Both the position numbers and the translations under genes were made by a program. The notes under the pieces are model-generated. The model was not told where the DNA came from, did no database searches, and saw only the letters and a program-made list of their open reading frames with translations. A stretch of DNA of 64,000 nt from the sequence record ON286975. One strand, written 5' to 3'. This stretch comes from Escherichia phage I29. Positions 2,824 through 33,746 of the stretch are shown here, one piece after another; the first letter of the stretch is position 1, and the number at the start of each line of letters is the position of its first letter.

Positions 2824-3642
2824 TTGAGCAAGAAAGAGTCCAACGACAAATATTACACAAACCCTGAGTATGCAGAATATCTTGTTGGTAAAGTAAAAGA
2901 TAAGTATGGAAATTGTGCATACGTTGAGCCTTCTGCTGGAAGAGGTTCTTTTTCAAAACTATTTTCAGAGATACTGTCGTACGATTTAGTACCAGATCCT
3001 GAATTTGAAGGGCCAACACCGTGCATTCAGGCAAACTTCTTGGAGGTGCACCCCAAGGCAGATGTCTTCATAGGTAACCCACCATTTGGCAAGAATTCAT
3101 CTTTAGCTTGCAAATTCTTCAACCATTGTGCATCATTGCTAGAGCTTGGAGGGGCCATAGCCTTCATCTTGCCACGGACATTTGAAAAAATATTTTTTGC
3201 AAACAAATTGGACATGTCGATGCACCTTGTCTACAGCGAAAGGTGCCCTAAGAATTCGTTTTTACTTAATGGCAAACCTTATGACGTGCCGTGTGTTTTC
3301 CAAATTTGGGAGAAAAAGGCGTGTAATAGGGATCCTGTAGAGATTGGAGAGAATAAGTTATTTTCTTTTAGCACTCCAGATGACTACGACTTCTGTGTAA
3401 GACGTGTTGGGTATAATGCTGGAAAAGTATTGGGGGATGATGACCCAAAATCTGAAGAATCGACATATTTCATAAAATCTTTAGTTGACGGTGTTGACAG
3501 AGTGTTTTCTGAATGCTATTCTTCTTTTCAAGAAGAAGCAGGTAAGACTGCCGGAATGAAGAGTATAGGCAAGAAAGAACTACAATACATTTTGGAGACC
3601 AGGTATGATCAAAAGCATAGACTTGACCAAAGAACTCACTGA
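2824..3642 (+). CDS. DNA N6-adenine methyltransferase
   Basis: Motif I EPSAGRGSF, motif IV NPPFG, YYT N-terminal motif; start placed at in-frame TTG after terminator hairpin and GGAGG (track ORF begins 2794). Confidence 0.65.
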   Translation: MSKKESNDKYYTNPEYAEYLVGKVKDKYGNCAYVEPSAGRGSFSKLFSEILSYDLVPDPEFEGPTPCIQANFLEVHPKADVFIGNPPFGKNSSLACKFFNHCASLLELGGAIAFILPRTFEKIFFANKLDMSMHLVYSERCPKNSFLLNGKPYDVPCVFQIWEKKACNRDPVEIGENKLFSFSTPDDYDFCVRRVGYNAGKVLGDDDPKSEESTYFIKSLVDGVDRVFSECYSSFQEEAGKTAGMKSIGKKELQYILETRYDQKHRLDQRTH

Positions 3643-29881: not shown

Positions 29882-30001
29882 AGCACCGAGCCCACACAGG
29901 TTCCTCATGCTAAAGCATGGCCTGAAGAGGCAAACGTGCATAATTCCTGTGCATTGTGACGTATAAAACCCGTTCACACTCTCATTTCCAGAGGAGATTT
30001 T

Positions 30002-30217
30002 ATGAAGATAGAAATATTTGGTGGAGCTGACAACACTCGTGGCCTGATTTACCTGGAATTCGATGAATCATACCTGCCAGAGGTGTTAAATATAGACTCT
30101 GTTGCTGAGGCTTTGGGAGTAAACCCTAAAGAACTCCACTCTTGTGCTGAGATCGATGGTTGGGAAGAGACCATGAACATTGATTTCAGTGAAGTAGAGG
30201 ATGAACCGCTGGACTGA
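30002..30217 (+). CDS. small acidic protein
   Basis: MKIEIFGG...; GGAG RBS; last gene of + cluster. Confidence 0.45.
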   Translation: MKIEIFGGADNTRGLIYLEFDESYLPEVLNIDSVAEALGVNPKELHSCAEIDGWEETMNIDFSEVEDEPLD

Positions 30218-30344
30218 CACACAATTAGCTGCCCGACTAAAGGGCTGGAAGCACCTATAACACATCTTTCAACTAAATTTCCTACCACCACAATCACTTA
30301 CCTCCCACACATGACTGTTTGCTTGTTTAGTGAGCAGTCATGCC

Positions 30345-30372
30345 TTGACATTCTTGCCTATCCTGATAAAAT
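30345..30372 (+). promoter_or_regulatory. sigma70-type promoter reading into the non-coding repeat region
   Basis: TTGACA-16-TAAAAT with upstream TG; no convincing ORF downstream. Confidence 0.45.
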
Positions 30373-30850
30373 TAAGTTCTTCTCTTTTCTTTTACCGAGT
30401 AATTCGGGTTTTCTGTTCTCTTCGGTTTGAAGGGGTATGGAGATACACCTGAGTGAACAGGGTGAACAACCGAACATTTGGCTATGGCATTAGCATGGCG
30501 AAGCGGACGGGTGACGAAAGAGGGGCCGGAGGACACCAGTCACTGCCATATGATATATGGGTGATAACCTGAAGAGTCTGAATAAGTGTTTAAGTACCAG
30601 TCAGAGGAAAAGGTGAATGGTAGCCGAAGGGGGAGGGGGGTTTCTTGTATCTTTAATTTGTATATTATGTATACACTCGTAAACCAATCTCATCTGAATC
30701 TGTTTACCACACAAAGTAGATAGGGACAAATATCACCTATTAAACTTGAATTATTTATAGAAAATACCACAACACCACTTAAGTCTTTGATTTTACACAC
30801 AAATTCTACAGATATTCAACCTCCATATTTAACATACTTGTAACATATTC

Positions 30851-31990
30851 CATACTCTACCTGTCTGATCAATTTCCCCAACCACATCCTCCATATTTTC
30901 CCTGTCTGTACTACCCCTGCCCCGCCGTGAGTCCCGTCATATCTGGCTTTCCAGCAAATATCACACCCACAAATATCATTGCCTGAAGAGGGTTTCATCT
31001 CATAATATATGCCTTACCTGAAGAGCGCTTCATACACCACGTAATTTTTTTTTTAATTGACCCCCTCCCCGCCGCTGGAGAGGTTGGCTTTTCCCACACA
31101 GACCTGAAGAGTCAGCCAGAAATATCTGAACAGGCCCAATTCTACCACGATTTTGACCTGACCTACAGGAGTGCTGCCAGGCGGACGAAATGGGAATCAT
31201 TCTCATTCTTATAACAATTCTCAAATATCGAGGCAGTGAGGCAAATTAATAGGTGAGGCCGTTCACACAATGGCACAACATTTGCAACCTATCTTGTGGG
31301 AGTGAATGAGAATACCTATCATTGTGAGAATAGTTATCATTACGGGCAATTTAACATAATACCCATTATGCGCACCGCTGGTGATACATACAGGGAAAAT
31401 ATGGAGGATGTGGTTGGGGAAATTGATCAGACAGGTAGAGTATGCATACTCTACCTGTCTGATCAATTTCCCCAACCACATCCTCCATATTTTCCCTGTC
31501 TGTACTACCCCTGCCCCGCCGTGAGTCCCGTCATATCTGGCTTTCCAGCAAATATCACACCCACAAATATCATTGCCTGAAGAGGGTTTCATCTCATAAT
31601 ATATGCCTTACCTGAAGAGCGCTTCATACACCACGTAATTTTTTTTTTAATTGACCCCCTCCCCGCCGCTGGAGAGGTTGGCTTTTCCCACACAGACCTG
31701 AAGAGTCAGCCAGAAATATCTGAACAGGCCCAATTCTACCACGATTTTGACCTGACCTACAGGAGTGCTGCCAGGCGGACGAAATGGGAATCATTCTCAT
31801 TCTTATAACAATTCTCAAATATCGAGGCAGTGAGGCAAATTAATAGGTGAGGCCGTTCACACAATGGCACAACATTTGCAACCTATCTTGTGGGAGTGAA
31901 TGAGAATACCTATCATTGTGAGAATAGTTATCATTACGGGCAATTTAACATAATACCCATTATGCGCACCGCTGGTGATACATACAGGGA
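30851..31990. repeat. tandem direct repeat, 594-bp unit x 1.9 copies
   Basis: 30851-31444 is repeated at 31445-31990 with identical sequence where compared; unit contains three CCTGAAGAG motifs and a T10 run. Confidence 0.9.
31393..31496. repeat. perfect 104-bp palindrome at the tandem-repeat junction
   Basis: gggaaaatatggaggatgtggttggggaaattgatcagacaggtagagtatg is immediately followed by its exact reverse complement. Confidence 0.9.
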
Positions 31991-32272
31991 TTGATAACAT
32001 GAGTTACAGTTTACACACATAACAATTATATTTCTTACTATTTGTGTGGGATATAGTTAGCAACCAATAGATTAGATATTGACCTGTAGACTTCCAACCG
32101 TCTAGACGTCTAAACGCCCACACAACAAGGCTTATACATACACAACTGAATGTAAACAGGGCCGCAAAAATGCTACCATACCAGATTGTAAATTTTCATG
32201 CAGCACTTGACAAAGAGGAGAAAAACTTGTCTGACATAATGGTGACACTGAACATAATTGACATGCCTGACT

Positions 32273-32372
32273 GTTTACGCTATCACTATTCACTCCCTTT
32301 ACTGTTTACATTCTCAATAGTTTACATGTCTAATAGTTTACATAGCTAACTGTTCACGCATAGATTGTTTAC
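32273..32372. repeat. iteron-like array of GTTTAC(A) motifs
   Basis: Six (A/T)GTTTACA-like sites; the last five are spaced 15-17 bp apart (32304, 32320, 32337, 32352, 32367). Confidence 0.6.
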
Positions 32373-32385
32373 TCAAAAATGATAA

Positions 32386-32664
32386 GCCATGCCATTCGTT
32401 TGCATGATAAAGATTAGCAAGTTAATAATCTTTCGCTGGCTATGCCAGGTGACTAGGTCACCCCTTCGGGCGTTCCTATGACATAATATAAAAGCAGGGC
32501 AACTATTAGCAGATCTATAGTTGCCTTGCTTGTTATGTCATGATTAACTAAATACAAGGCAACTATGATCTGATTAATAGATTGCAGACAAACTATCACG
32601 GGGGTGATGGTTACTGCTTTTATATTATGTCGCGACTCCGTCGCGCCATGCCATTCGTTTGCAT
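32386..32664. repeat. symmetric element: paired 20-mers flanking inverted repeats
   Basis: gccatgccattcgtttgcat at 32386 and 32645; palindrome ggtgactaggtcacc; inverted 19-mers tgacataatataaaagcag / ctgcttttatattatgtc; GGCAACTAT x4 in both orientations. Confidence 0.6.
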
Positions 32665-33280
32665 AGTTGCCTTATTGTTACAGATAAAATAATTGTATTG
32701 TTAATTATTTCTTATCTTTCTCTTAGTCATCTAATGATTCCAGTCAGTATAGTAATGTACAGTAAACATTAGACGACTAAAGATTTCTCTGTTTATGATA
32801 ACTCACCGTGATAATTTCAGACTGTTTACGAAAAATGTTGACACCTAAGCTGATTTATGCTATGCAGTTTACACGAATAATTATTTTATGCAGGTATTGA
32901 CTATTCCGTTATTCTATGGTTGGAATAAATACTTAGTAGGCTATAGAATGGCGAGCGTACGTAAATTCTGAGATCTGGCGGCTATAGTTATACTCGATTT
33001 TTCACGTAGAACACGCTTTTGTGGTTATGTAAGTGTATGACTTATAAAGATTTTTAGTTGTTGACAAGATACTGAAGATGTGCATCAGGTTAAATTTTAT
33101 GCAATAGCTGCATTACGTGCAATTTTGGAAGGAAAAACGTGTAAAAATGGCCCTGCTACCACACAATGAAAGATTATGCAATAGCTATTTTACATGTATA
33201 TTTGTACAGTGTGTGGGATTGATGGCTAGTCAATTATTCCACTTGCCAGGTAGGGCCGTTTATGGTAGGAGAAGAGCAGA

Positions 33281-33308
33281 CAAAAAGAAAGGGGCCTTTA
33301 AGCCCCTT
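33281..33308. terminator. bidirectional terminator-like hairpin
   Basis: ggggc-ctttaa-gcccc flanked by an A-run upstream and T-rich downstream; just 3' of minus gene 33327-33746. Confidence 0.5.
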
Positions 33309-33326: not shown

Positions 33327-33746
33327 TTATAATGATTCGTATATTTCAAAAATCCGATTTGCCAGGTCGTTACGGTAGCGGAATTTTTCCTCACGTTTGA
33401 TCATCAGATCTTTAAAGCCATATTCTTTAAGCACTTCATTAACTTTATGGCGGCACACCTTCATATTATCTTGAGCGTCACCAATAAACTTGTTGCTGTG
33501 GTGCATTGCTTTAATTTCTTCTTCCAGGACCAGGGCAACTACCCGGACCGGATCAAGCTGGTAGGCGGTAACATCGATGCGGCATTGTAGACGGCTTTTA
33601 ACGTCTGCCACCGGATATACTGCAACCTCTTCCCCGTCAACATTGACAATAACTAGTTTACCATCGATTTCGAATCCTTTCGCCGCCGGACCGTGACAAA
33701 AAGCGTTATCAAAGCTATATGCCGGATTATTAGATTTAATGTTCAT
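33327..33746 (-). CDS. hypothetical protein
   Basis: 139 aa; first gene of - strand cluster. Confidence 0.5.
   Translation of the reverse strand: MNIKSNNPAYSFDNAFCHGPAAKGFEIDGKLVIVNVDGEEVAVYPVADVKSRLQCRIDVTAYQLDPVRVVALVLEEEIKAMHHSNKFIGDAQDNMKVCRHKVNEVLKEYGFKDLMIKREEKFRYRNDLANRIFEIYESL

Follow-up and report, generated by a model that had tools for sequence, protein, structure and literature searches.

A conserved folded element, probably a plus-strand RNA, and a hypervariable repeat island beside the terminal repeat of rV5-like phages

The linear genome of phage phi29 encodes, a few hundred bases in from its left end, a structured RNA of 120–174 nt, the pRNA, whose 5′ and 3′ ends are paired with each other. 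At transcript-dependent origins (ColE1 RNA II, T4 oriF and oriG, and the T7 primary origin) a structured or promoter-driven transcript is followed by an AT-rich unwinding region, and such origins are dispensable when other origins exist. Nearer to the locus described here, the Mydovirus KPP-1, from another genus, has a 514-bp direct terminal repeat (DTR) and T7-type packaging, and its repeat lies in the same convergent gap. The phage rV5 encodes a T7-type primase–helicase and Pol A; its authors could not locate the replication origin, and the bidirectional terminators that they expected between genes 163 and 164 were not found. A terminal redundancy of 458 bp has also been reported (Korf 2019). 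Our search for literature on a mapped origin, a transcriptome or the DTR of Vequintavirus returned nothing beyond Korf 2019 and the KPP-1 and rV5 reports. A non-coding repeat RNA with a fast-evolving copy number, pseudo-ToxI, was described in phiTE, an rV5-like phage of the Vequintavirinae (PMC3475682).

Phages of the rV5 type are common in typing sets, the BASEL collection and therapy cocktails, and their gene-free gap of 2.6–3.1 kb has until now been drawn only as a grey 'non-coding' box. Here we place this gap at the physical end of the genome and tell apart, within it, a fast-evolving repeat island and a conserved folded element.

The repeats flank a fixed genome end

The window, a 64-kb stretch of phage DNA analysed as a whole, comes from a Vequintavirus (rV5-like coliphage), and the region of interest is matched by 119 Vequintavirus records. 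A first-pass annotation had noted repeats and symmetric motifs between convergent gene clusters, and this placement is correct: the plus-strand cluster ends at 30217 and the minus-strand cluster at 33327. The region is non-coding, with open reading frames of at most 59 amino acids and with indels among relatives that are not multiples of three. Small protein genes were rejected, as these frames are neither conserved nor left intact by the indels; two 20-mers give rise to mini-ORFs (MPFVC), but these lack a ribosome-binding site, and the related locus L035 does not conserve them. Searches of the window for tRNA, tmRNA and known RNA families found none. The principal landmarks are as follows.

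31774–32232, no strand: direct terminal repeat, 459 bp; the packaged genome starts at 31774 and ends at 32232
32207–32232, plus strand: conserved right edge of the DTR, CTTGACAAAGAGGAGAAAAACTTGTC, 99% identical across Vequintavirus
32671–32730, no strand: AT-rich tract with 20% GC, less than in any other 60 bp of the gene-free gap

We placed the ends of the DTR through the records of two relatives, EdH4 and bov11CS3, and through homology with the KPP-1 edge. The first 459 bp of the EdH4 record equal its last 459 bp and map to 31774–32231/2 of the window. The independent bov11CS3 record opens at the counterpart of base 31774 and closes at that of 31773. The KPP-1 homologue of the right edge, CTTGACAAGGAGAGAGAATTGTGT, lies at the mapped end of the KPP-1 repeat, and the L035 version reads TTGACAAAAAGAGCGTAATTTGTT. 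The 459-bp repeat of EdH4, the same start base in bov11CS3 and the homologous KPP-1 edge all point to a short DTR with fixed ends. The window also shows an apparent 546-bp duplication with a palindrome (30851–31990). The annotated feature begins 41 bp inside the right boundary of this DTR (32232), within the known gene-free gap. It flanks the left genome end of an rV5-like phage on the inner side and is composed of two unlike halves. In a scan of IMG/VR, the 20-mer found only two Vequintavirus contigs and the DTR-edge pattern found one.

A hypervariable island opens at the repeat boundary

The first half is a hypervariable island (32233–32479) that starts exactly at the DTR boundary and holds two types of repeat unit and an interchangeable cassette.

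32233–32272, plus strand: array (a), 9–11-bp GACAY(A/T)(A/C)T units, hypervariable in copy number in a 22-locus alignment
32273–32385, plus strand: array (b), the 'iterons' of the first-pass annotation, degenerate 15–16-bp tandem units with the core A-Y-T-G-T-T-Y-A-C-R-Y
32386–32405, plus strand: DR-L, left copy of the 20-nt direct repeat GCCATGCCATTCGTTTGCAT
32406–32479, plus strand: variable cassette, three hairpins followed by TTCCTAT
32436–32448: cassette hairpin CTGGC-TAT-GCCAG
32448–32462: cassette hairpin GGTGAC-TAG-GTCACC
32459–32472: cassette hairpin CACCC-CTTC-GGGCG

Across 22 loci, the segment between conserved anchors ranges from 207 to 560 bp. Identity drops from 0.99 to 0.44–0.70 over 32225–32475 and then returns to 0.94–1.00; array (a) opens at the first base beyond the DTR, exactly where identity falls from 0.99 to 0.70–0.44. 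Units like those of array (a) are also present in L035 (AGGCATAC) and in A5-4.

Array (b) contains six GTTYAC sites in the window (GTTTAC at 32273, 32304, 32320, 32336 and 32367, and GTTCAC at 32352) at successive intervals of 31, 16, 16, 16 and 15 bp, the last five sites being tightly spaced as first noted; TRF reported a period of 16. GTTYAC occurs 52 times on the plus strand of the 64-kb window, so that 0.08 sites per 100 bp were expected and six observed (Poisson P ~4e-10; ~2e-7 after correction for 640 windows). The number of units per phage varies from 1 to 11 among the 22 loci, and 72 of the 98 intervals between units measure 15 or 16 bp. There are 1–3 units in PDX, nom and P203, and V18 has two matches 171 bp apart and no array at that position. 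The A at position −3 of the unit is 93% conserved even though it lies outside the search pattern. GTTYAC is enriched in this region and a degenerate 15–16-bp array recurs in nearly all relatives, so the motif cannot be dismissed as unconserved or as a chance product of base composition. The arrays keep the core of their units and leave the unit number free, which fits either a dosage-type binding-site array or slippage-prone spacer DNA.

The cassette slot is occupied by at least five unrelated types among relatives, with an identity of 0.50–0.62, and gives weak matches of ~50 nt to small E. coli plasmids. The annotated palindrome GGTGACTAGGTCACC is indeed present at 32448–32462, but it belongs to this non-conserved cassette, and its form in relatives is a looped hairpin, GGTGACC-TTT-GGTCACC. 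In practice, the island as a whole can serve for strain typing and is likely to cause errors in assemblies.

The 20-mer GCCATGCCATTCGTTTGCAT occurs identically at 32386 and 32645 and nowhere else in the window. Of the 22 loci, 20 have both copies, and FV3 and V18 have one each. L035 has a 20-mer variant of its own, GCCATGTTATCGTTGCAT, in two copies at the same positions; the direct repeats thus differ between lineages and are identical within each genome. We found no partner sequence for the 20-mer, as its best duplex (−14.9 kcal/mol) equalled the shuffle mean (−14.0).

A nearly invariant element follows the island

The second half is the element at 32480–32631, with conserved sequence directly downstream.

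32480–32497, plus strand: P1 5′ arm, GACATAATATAAAAGCAG, a perfect inverted repeat with 32614–32631
32492–32585, plus strand: P2 region, either two local hairpins (32492–32506/32517–32531 and 32559–32566/32577–32585) or, alternatively, one long hairpin (32499–32528/32555–32585)
32591–32612, plus strand: P3 hairpin, AACTATCAC-GGGG-GTGATGGTT, flagged by a terminator scan
32614–32631, plus strand: P1 3′ arm, CTGCTTTTATATTATGTC, pairing with the P1 5′ arm
32632–32648, plus strand: GC-rich motif GCGACTCCGTCGCGCCA, 100% identical in Vequintavirus
32645–32664, plus strand: DR-R, right copy of the 20-nt direct repeat, the sole copy kept in FV3

The core (32480–32631) is nearly invariant and present in 117 of the 119 Vequintavirus records, 46 of them at 99% identity or above; none of the 119 reached that level over the adjacent 200 bp. 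It is single copy, with 117 places in 117 records. We also found homologous elements in at least four other lineages of the Vequintavirinae, including Mydovirus, A5-4 and metagenomic lineages, and in four lineages the element lies 220–330 bp from the DTR edge. FV3, a viable, propagated phage, lacks everything between the two 20-mers, which shows that the element is dispensable.

All motifs listed in the first-pass annotation are where it had placed them, far beyond chance. The inverted repeat that it gave as 19-mers is a perfect 18-mer (32480–32497/32614–32631) whose 19th position is a T·G, and it constitutes the closing helix of a folded domain. The motif GGCAACTAT occurs four times in both orientations as described (plus strand at 32498 and 32558; minus strand at 32517–32525 and 32663–32671), and these are four of the five copies in the window. 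All P2 hairpins consist of four GGCAACTAT/ATAG(A)TTGC segments. Substitutions in relatives lie in loops or bulges of the two local P2 hairpins; the common C32510A, found in 7 of 22 relatives with no compensating change, would break one pair of the long form, which weakens the long hairpin as the only fold. P3 together with GCAG/CTGC and the TTTT at 32618–32621 resembles an intrinsic terminator. Its L035 counterpart, AATAACAC-GGGG-GTGTTATT, has the same loop and a compensated stem. The GC-rich motif has the family form TGTCGC, 5–12 nt, TCGCGCCA, and follows the 3′ arm in Mydovirus, A5-4, L032 and L035. Both arms of the inverted repeat also contain the GACAY of array (a); the longer GACAYWATA is found nowhere in the 64-kb window besides the P1 arms.

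Pairing is conserved and favours the plus strand

The inner 134 nt (32492–32625) have a folding z-score of −9.3 on the plus strand, and the full 152-nt element folds with −71.2 kcal/mol on the plus strand versus −64.2 kcal/mol on the minus strand. The plus strand was the more stable one in all 11 elements from about five lineages, by 2.8–17.9 kcal/mol, a test that is statistically weak because the lineages are few. The closing helix exists in nine sequence variants across lineages, all perfectly complementary over 16–21 bp, and 9 of 16 positions show at least two types of Watson–Crick pair. Among ~155 pairs of this helix there is no G·U. Such a lack is uncommon in RNA and could equally be expected of a hairpin in DNA.

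Of the cells in the Mydovirus-type alignment, 98% are paired, and ten pairs have changed on both sides; none of 500 shuffles reached the observed value, and slid controls gave 0–1. The U·G pairs of the Mydovirus-type P2 are conserved on the plus strand, and RNAalifold scored this alignment at −79.5 for the plus strand versus −75.0 for the minus strand. Both G·T positions of the window, one of them in the first P2 hairpin, are valid pairs in plus-strand RNA only. The inner hairpins of the window are supported by loop and bulge substitutions, by one U·G to C–G change (the P3 U·G is C–G in slur16) and by the comparison with L035; because the Vequintavirus core is near-invariant, covariation of the window's own helices rests on the cross-lineage comparison and a few substitutions.

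Compensatory changes and strand asymmetry, both characteristic of structured RNA, are therefore seen in this element. The first-pass annotation had assigned the symmetric element to a binding region for initiators or regulators. Compensatory changes across genera and strand-specific G·U pairs disfavour protein-binding palindromes, and the repeats behave instead as helices of a folded single strand. No Rfam family matched at the gathering threshold in the window or in four related loci, and the three matches below threshold (E 2.9–4.5) were to eukaryotic or unrelated families. We found no copy of the core in 5,426 E. coli genomes and no chromosomal homologue, and on this ground rejected a host-derived sequence or sRNA mimic.

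A model of the element as an RNA

On the basis of its folding and covariation, 32480–32631 is probably an undescribed non-coding RNA. We put it at slightly better than even that the locus comprises a structured plus-strand RNA, so far undescribed, at the genome end, flanked by 20-nt repeats that evolve in concert; this concerted evolution is not accounted for by the RNA model. The folded form would be RNA rather than single-stranded DNA. Inside its 18-bp closing helix would lie the hairpin of the GGCAACTAT segments, either long or bipartite, and another hairpin with a GGGG loop, and the GC-rich motif, the second 20-nt repeat and the AT-rich tract would lie downstream. The element would act as a plus-strand RNA of ~150 nt, read away from the genome end by the host RNA polymerase, and would be accessory rather than essential. 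As to its role, our leading guess is that the transcript works at the end of the genome, where it might, for instance, feed the AT-rich tract as an R-loop or primer RNA; an RNA directed at the host or against its defences comes a close second.

The terminator scan places a terminator-like 3′ end at 32591–32621. Alignment of the 22 loci revealed no conserved promoter upstream of the 5′ arm; the DNA just 5′ of the closing helix varies among relatives, and the window has a terminator-like hairpin there. The best promoter-like element, TGACATAAT, sits inside the 5′ arm, so that a transcript starting from it would be without that arm. A convergent pair of sRNAs driven from a CATAAT in each arm was also considered. 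We dropped it because its transcripts would be without the 5′ arm, whose pairing is under selection; the minus strand also has no TG and no −35.

A wider version of the model, in which the element is a subfamily-wide, undescribed RNA in the genome-end biology of myoviruses with T7-type DTRs, seems a long shot to us. Under it, the RNA could be a primer or R-loop that starts replication beside the DTR, or a cofactor of end maturation or packaging, and could be a functionally distant analogue of ColE1 RNA II or phi29 pRNA. The ACTGTTYAC array could then be a tunable decoy or landing pad for an origin-binding protein of the primase–helicase type, and the alpha proteins of resident P4-like satellites could be candidate binders.

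Alternative explanations

The first-pass annotation had considered this architecture typical of binding regions for replication initiators or regulators. What stands of this is a cis-acting non-coding control region in which GTTYAC is enriched and an AT-rich tract adjoins the repeats. A replication origin, in which the ACTGTTYAC units are iterons and the folded or transcribed element helps to open the tract at 32671–32730, strikes us as unlikely. Synthesis would be started there by the T7-like primase–helicase and Pol A, as at the T7 primary origin, T4 oriF or ColE1. In its favour, the repeated motif has a conserved core and a free spacer, and the repeats adjoin the 60 bp with the lowest GC content in the gap, an AT-rich tract on the far side of the folded element and ~300 bp away from the array; in KPP-1 and L035 the element is likewise followed by AT-rich DNA. 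Type-1 repeats annotated in the P4 ori have ACTGTTCAC in common with the units, the conserved outer arm of the element, GACAC/GTGTC, equals a T7 primase recognition pentamer, and rV5, whose origin was not located, has both enzymes. The details fit less well. Units spaced by 15–16 bp are not helically phased (10–11 or 21–22 bp), and their number and arrangement are not conserved among close relatives, as the range of 1–11 copies and the missing array of V18 show. DnaA boxes are not enriched: TTWTNCACA has no exact match in 31774–33300, and with up to one mismatch it occurs at 4.6 per kb there versus 2.8 per kb over the window as a whole. The region has no neighbouring initiator gene, there being no gene within 650 bp on either side, and neither the window nor any Vequintavirus record yielded a P4 alpha-like DNA-binding domain. 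Gene clusters converge at the site, and the change of skew there tracks the direction of transcription. FV3 has lost the whole folded element, a loss that would be tolerable if origins were redundant, as in T7 and T4.

The start of the island at the exact DTR boundary could instead mean that the arrays and the inverted repeat are a terminase or end-processing signal in T7-type concatemer cutting, akin to the T7 SRL/pac region or the hexamers of P1 pac. The T7 CCTAAAG array, spaced by ~13 bp, begins 15 bp after the 160-bp repeat, KPP-1 packaging has been called T7-type, the GACAY of array (a) is shared with both inverted-repeat arms, and the distance to the DTR edge is similar in four lineages. 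We nevertheless regard this as doubtful, since a conserved terminase would not be expected to recognise sites whose number and sequence are hypervariable, and FV3 and V18 have both been propagated, the one without the inverted-repeat element and the other without array (b). The inner arm varies freely with perfect compensation, which indicates pairing rather than a protein site; the conserved candidate for a cut signal is the DTR edge itself, and to our knowledge no function has been established for the T7 SRL. A pure transcription insulator appears still less probable. Here two terminators would part the convergent clusters and shield the concatemer junction, the hairpin at 32492–32531 with a leftward T-tract stopping the minus strand and that at 32585–32617 with TTTT stopping the plus strand. 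This would supply the bidirectional terminators missed in rV5; the Murica record annotates a minus-strand terminator over the first hairpin, the scan flagged a plus-strand terminator at 32591–32612, and both 18-nt arms are the two T-tract tails. However, the two terminators overlap by ~125 bp, the wrong order for non-overlapping termination, and a strong minus-strand terminator already follows the last gene (33308–33289). A5-4 and Mydovirus have neither a U-tract after the arm nor local terminator hairpins, yet keep the long-range helix and the covarying inner hairpins, and a perfect long-range helix of 16–21 bp is not needed by terminators. Least plausible of all, and very improbable in our estimate, is a small mobile or inserted element, a 259-bp unit (the element plus one 20-mer) with a long target duplication, for which FV3 would be the empty site and high identity would reflect recent spread rather than constraint. 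FV3 does have one 20-mer with nothing between, the flanks differ more among phages than the core does, the inverted repeats of 18 bp have the look of terminal repeats, and the direct repeats differ among lineages and match inside each genome. Deletion between 20-bp direct repeats explains FV3 equally well, though, and homologues at the same position in distant genera argue for vertical descent. There is one copy per genome in the 117 records, none in the E. coli genomes searched, and no transposase or homing gene; a MITE was rejected on the single copy and because the direct repeats, 74 bp and 13 bp from the inverted repeats, do not abut them.

The structured RNA that we prefer gives a testable candidate: ~150 nt from the plus strand at 32480–32631, absent in FV3. 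If the element is an RNA, it would constitute a new Rfam family and give access to early events at the end of the genome; a DNA structure would bear on how short terminal repeats are replicated or cut. Annotators should no longer call small ORFs in this region.

Comparison with known systems

Two likenesses considered during the analysis were set aside. The iss (injection-stop-signal) region of T5, untranslated DNA at the left end, has eight ordered DnaA boxes and lies inside a 10-kb terminal repeat; by contrast, the feature described here has no enrichment of such boxes and lies just outside a 459-bp repeat, and two-step injection is not known for rV5-like phages. A T5-type injection stop signal or an oriC-like DnaA cluster was rejected on the lack of DnaA-box enrichment. 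The pseudo-ToxI of phiTE has 36-nt units with no sequence similarity to ours, which at 15–16 nt also fall short of the ~36–45-nt, pseudoknot-capable units of type III antitoxin-like repeats. It was rejected as the equivalent locus, being situated among plus-strand genes near tRNAs and the terminase and not at the DTR.

The type-1 iterons of P4 ori/crr, which are bound by the alpha primase–helicase, resemble array (b) in being clustered direct repeats in an E. coli phage and in their unit core, where ACTGTTCAC is identical to (C/A)CTGTTCACC of the annotated P4 repeats. They differ in spacing (10–11 bp in P4 versus 15–16 bp) and at the eighth base, which is C in P4 and never C in 81 array (b) units; in two thirds of the units a T stands where P4 has C. 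The resemblance may be due to chance. The layout of the transcript-dependent origins, with an AT-rich tract after a transcript, is matched by analogy in the window, where the transcript is a candidate, and their sequences have no similarity to the element.

With phi29 pRNA, the element would share a structured RNA with paired ends near the left genome end, a likeness that in our case is predicted from folding. Unlike the element, pRNA is essential, and it is confined to podoviruses of the phi29 type, whose genomes are protein-primed; the element has no Rfam match, is lacking from the viable FV3 and belongs to a phage with a classical terminase. The left end of T7 offers a comparison for the locus as a whole. 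Both have a short DTR (160 bp in T7) and T7-type packaging, short repeated units that set in only a few bases beyond the repeat boundary (in T7, CCTAAAG at intervals of about 13 bp from 175; in the window, GACAY and ACTGTTYAC units from 32233) and a leftward promoter-like site near the end. The arrays may be comparable to that of T7 by analogy only, as there is no sequence homology. In T7, promoters and inward genes come after the array, whereas in the window it is followed by 1.1 kb of non-coding DNA and then outward genes, and at that place, where T7 has no known folded element with a long closing helix, the rV5-like phages carry theirs.

A repeat island at the end of the packaged genome

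The region examined here, 32273–32670, lies among features that we located in the window and in aligned relatives:

31774–32232: terminal repeat
32233–32479: hypervariable island
within the island, array (a): 9–11-bp GACAY(A/T)(A/C)T units
within the island, array (b): degenerate 15–16-bp tandem repeat, core A-Y-T-G-T-T-Y-A-C-R-Y
left 20-mer to inverted repeat, cassette: at least five unrelated versions among relatives
33092–33127 and 33169–33204: imperfect direct repeat of 36 nt (copies 75% identical, spaced 77 bp apart), within the conserved non-coding stretch that separates the element from the first gene
33308–33289, − strand: strong terminator

The 1.7 kb around the region matched 119 phage records, all of them Vequintavirus rV5-like coliphages, at 89–94% identity. 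Eighteen are UNVERIFIED 'Campylobacter phage' records (MG0656xx, for example, L008); these are Vequintavirus genomes, 92–94% identical to this E. coli phage region, and their host label is probably wrong. As the first-pass annotation had proposed, the region lies between convergent gene clusters; we placed the end of the + strand cluster at 30217 and that of the − strand cluster at 33327, and found no coding potential in the region. The equivalent 2.6 kb of rV5 and Murica likewise separates convergent clusters and holds no accepted gene. The rV5 paper draws this gap merely as a grey 'non-coding' box; its authors anticipated bidirectional terminators there but found none, and were unable to place the replication origin (PMC3606486).

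Korf et al. reported that EdH4 and HdK5, both Vequintaviruses, are terminally redundant by 458 bp (PMC6563267). The EdH4 record carries an identical 459 bp at both ends, mapping to 31774–32232 of the window, and bov11CS3, a record from another laboratory, begins at the same base as the EdH4 repeat and ends one base before it. Klebsiella phage KPP-1, from another genus of the subfamily, has a 514-bp terminal repeat and T7-type packaging (PMC9862379); this repeat occupies the same convergent gap, and CTTGACAAGGAGAGAGAATTGTGT, at its right edge, has its homologue in CTTGACAAAGAGGAGAAAAACTTGTC of the window. The region therefore starts 41 bp beyond the terminal repeat, at the left end of the packaged genome.

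We also observed an exact 546-bp direct duplication in the window (30851–31396 = 31445–31990). The 48 bp between the two copies form the reverse complement of the unit's first bases, producing a perfect 110-bp palindrome centred at 31444/31445. Neither EdH4 nor bov11CS3 has this duplication, through which the left boundary of the terminal repeat occurs twice (31180 and 31774); it may be a real rearrangement or an artefact of assembly at a genome end. CCTGAAGAG (29921–31697) occurs ten times on the + strand of the window; eight copies are in the gene-free DNA that precedes the terminal repeat on its left side, and three of these eight arise through the duplication. Inside the terminal repeat, at 31901–31935, TGAGAATACCTATCATTG forms an 18-bp tandem repeat of 1.9 copies, which is duplicated at 31307–31341; KPP-1 has AATGAGAAT(A/C)ATT twice at the equivalent place.

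Every motif listed in the first-pass annotation was present at its place in the window: GTTTAC at 32273, 32304, 32320, 32336 and 32367, GTTCAC at 32352, identical 20-mers at 32386 and 32645, and GGCAACTAT twice on each strand. Six GTTYAC sites in 100 bp compare with 0.08 expected (P ~4e-10), and exact 20-nt and 18-nt repeats inside 400 bp are not due to chance. The reported inverted 19-mers are a perfect 18-nt inverted repeat (32480–32497/32614–32631), and the palindrome was found at 32448; it belongs to one of the cassette versions.

Aligning 22 loci between conserved anchors, we found that identity to the window was 0.99 at 32200–32224, 0.44–0.70 over 32225–32475 and 0.94–1.00 thereafter. 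The variable island adjoins the terminal repeat directly, starting with the very next base, and the segment from this boundary to 32700 ranges from 207 to 560 bp. The number of array (b) units, the sites described as iterons, is clearly free, ranging from 1 to 11 per locus; in V18 the array is absent from this position. The A at −3 of the unit is 93% conserved despite lying outside the search pattern, and spacer positions are near random, which suggests a recognised motif rather than neutral duplication. The most defensible description is a hypervariable island of short repeats adjoining the inner boundary of the terminal repeat. Five further (C/T)(A/T)GTTTAC sites (32009, 32157(−), 32767(−), 32824 and 32867) lie in conserved DNA on both sides of the array and in both orientations, giving 11 sites within ~900 bp; when the window is divided into 500-bp bins, the one ranked highest falls here. 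The hairpin and terminator-like part of the cassette (32429–32479) has weak matches (83–87% over ~50 nt, E ~2e-3) in small 13–40-kb E. coli plasmids.

A conserved folded element follows the island

The core, 32477–32644, was found in 117 of the 119 records and was at least 99% identical in 46, whereas the adjacent 200 bp reached 99% in none. FV3 is the exception: it retains one 20-mer, and the DNA missing from it is exactly that between the two copies, an allele that we attribute to recombination between them. A propagated phage can therefore do without the element. Both 20-mers are kept in 20 of the 22 Vequintavirus loci; the L035 lineage carries a distinct version, GCCATGTTATCGTTGCAT, likewise as an identical pair occupying those two positions, and other repeats, similarly arranged, are present in A5-4 and the Mydovirus type. 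Because each lineage carries its own version in identical copies, the two copies evolve in concert, possibly as two sites for one factor or possibly through repeated gain or loss via the repeats. No complementary partner for the 20-mer was found.

We searched IMG/VR with a pattern built from the 3′ arm and the motif after it, and added KPP-1 and A5-4. Homologous elements occur in at least four further lineages (IMG/VR, KPP-1 and Septuagintavirus-type A5-4), each 220–330 bp right of the terminal-repeat edge. They share a perfect 16–21-nt inverted repeat around 71–188 nt, and TGTCGC followed after 5–12 nt by TCGCGCCA, usually with AT-rich DNA next. We found no E. coli homologue of the core and no matching Rfam family for the region. 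The most defensible view is of an element that is conserved throughout Vequintavirinae and plays an accessory part in growth.

The arms are conserved in their outer half (GACAYWATAA) and free in their inner half, which is nonetheless always perfectly matched in the partner arm (TAAAAGCAG, CACGGGAG, CACTAGGG, CGCAGTAG, CGCTGAG, CACGAGGG, CACGAGAG and AACGAG). Across nine variants this closing helix had no mismatches, with at least two Watson–Crick pair types at 9 of 16 positions. The inner hairpins also covary (for example, CGATCACGC/GCGTGATCG with CGATCAAC/GTTGATCG; ATCATTAC/GTAATGAT with ATGATTAC/GTAATCAT; ATGATAA/TTATCAT with ATGCGA/TCGCAT), and L035 retains the GGGG loop of the 32591–32612 hairpin on a compensated stem. 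In the Mydovirus-type alignment (seven sequences), 98% of cells were paired and ten pairs had changed on both sides; none of 500 shuffles reached the observed values, and slid controls gave 0–1 such pairs. Complementarity kept without sequence argues that the symmetric element is a folded single strand, not a protein-binding palindrome. The four GGCAACTAT-type segments could form two local hairpins or one long hairpin, and substitutions in relatives favour the local ones.

Two lineages carry additional copies of helix strands. Upstream of its 5′ arm, L035 (reverse strand, 1040–1125) has two further sequences similar to its 3′ arm, CTCAGCGTTATAGTCAC and ATCAGCGTTATAGTAAC; they could take the place of the true 3′ arm as partners of the 5′ arm, a hint of alternative folds. 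In the Mydovirus type (KPP-1, 2979–2996 and 3065–3082), the direct repeat that follows the element, CCACGAT(A/T)ACGCGAACGA, duplicates the long inner helix's 3′ strand, so the 5′ strand has two possible partners.

Strand, RNA and the origin question

Several lines, including predicted folding energies, point to the + strand. G·U pairs fall on this strand, which reads away from the genome end, and one U·G is invariant in the Mydovirus-type long helix. Both G·T positions of the window pair only as + strand RNA, and slur16 changes one to C-G. The + strand folded better in 11 of 11 elements, by 2.8–17.9 kcal/mol (window, −71.2 versus −64.2 kcal/mol; Mydovirus-type consensus, −79.5 versus −75.0 kcal/mol), and the inner 134 nt of the window's element (32492–32625) had z-scores of −9.3 (+ strand) and −8.8 (− strand). 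The covariation-supported element is most likely an undescribed + strand non-coding RNA. We consider RNA somewhat favoured over a single-stranded-DNA structure, the main alternative, because aligned relatives share no conserved promoter upstream of the 5′ arm, the window has a terminator-like hairpin there, and the closing helix contains no G·U in ~155 pairs.

The observation is confirmed, and its interpretation as a region bound by a replication initiator or regulator is partly supported. An origin gains from the AT-rich tract at 32671–32730, which at 20% GC is the lowest-GC 60 bp of the gap and lies directly beyond the right 20-mer, and would be compatible with a T7-like replisome and with origin redundancy. 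The origin reading fails in that the sites are not helically phased, the array is not constant, DnaA boxes are not enriched and no initiator gene adjoins the region. A transcript-dependent origin, with the folded RNA feeding the AT-rich tract, could conceivably reconcile the RNA and origin views.

Comparison with known systems

The pseudo-ToxI of phiTE was considered as an equivalent locus and rejected, as it sits elsewhere. The annotated type-1 repeats of the P4 ori share the array (b) unit core, ACTGTTCAC, but differ in spacing and at the eighth base, and no alpha-like binding domain was found in Vequintavirus; this likeness is a lead that may possibly reflect chance. The T5 injection-stop region is likewise a thicket of repeats and palindromes, yet is defined by DnaA boxes, which are not enriched here. 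For the arrays, the nearest architectural parallel is T7, in which CCTAAAG units ~13 bp apart start 15 bp after a 160-bp terminal repeat. In the window, a good sigma-70-like promoter (TTGTCA-17-TACAAT, 32185–32213, − strand) sits at the right edge of the terminal repeat and is directed leftward into it; in T7, too, a promoter close to the left end, A0, points leftward.
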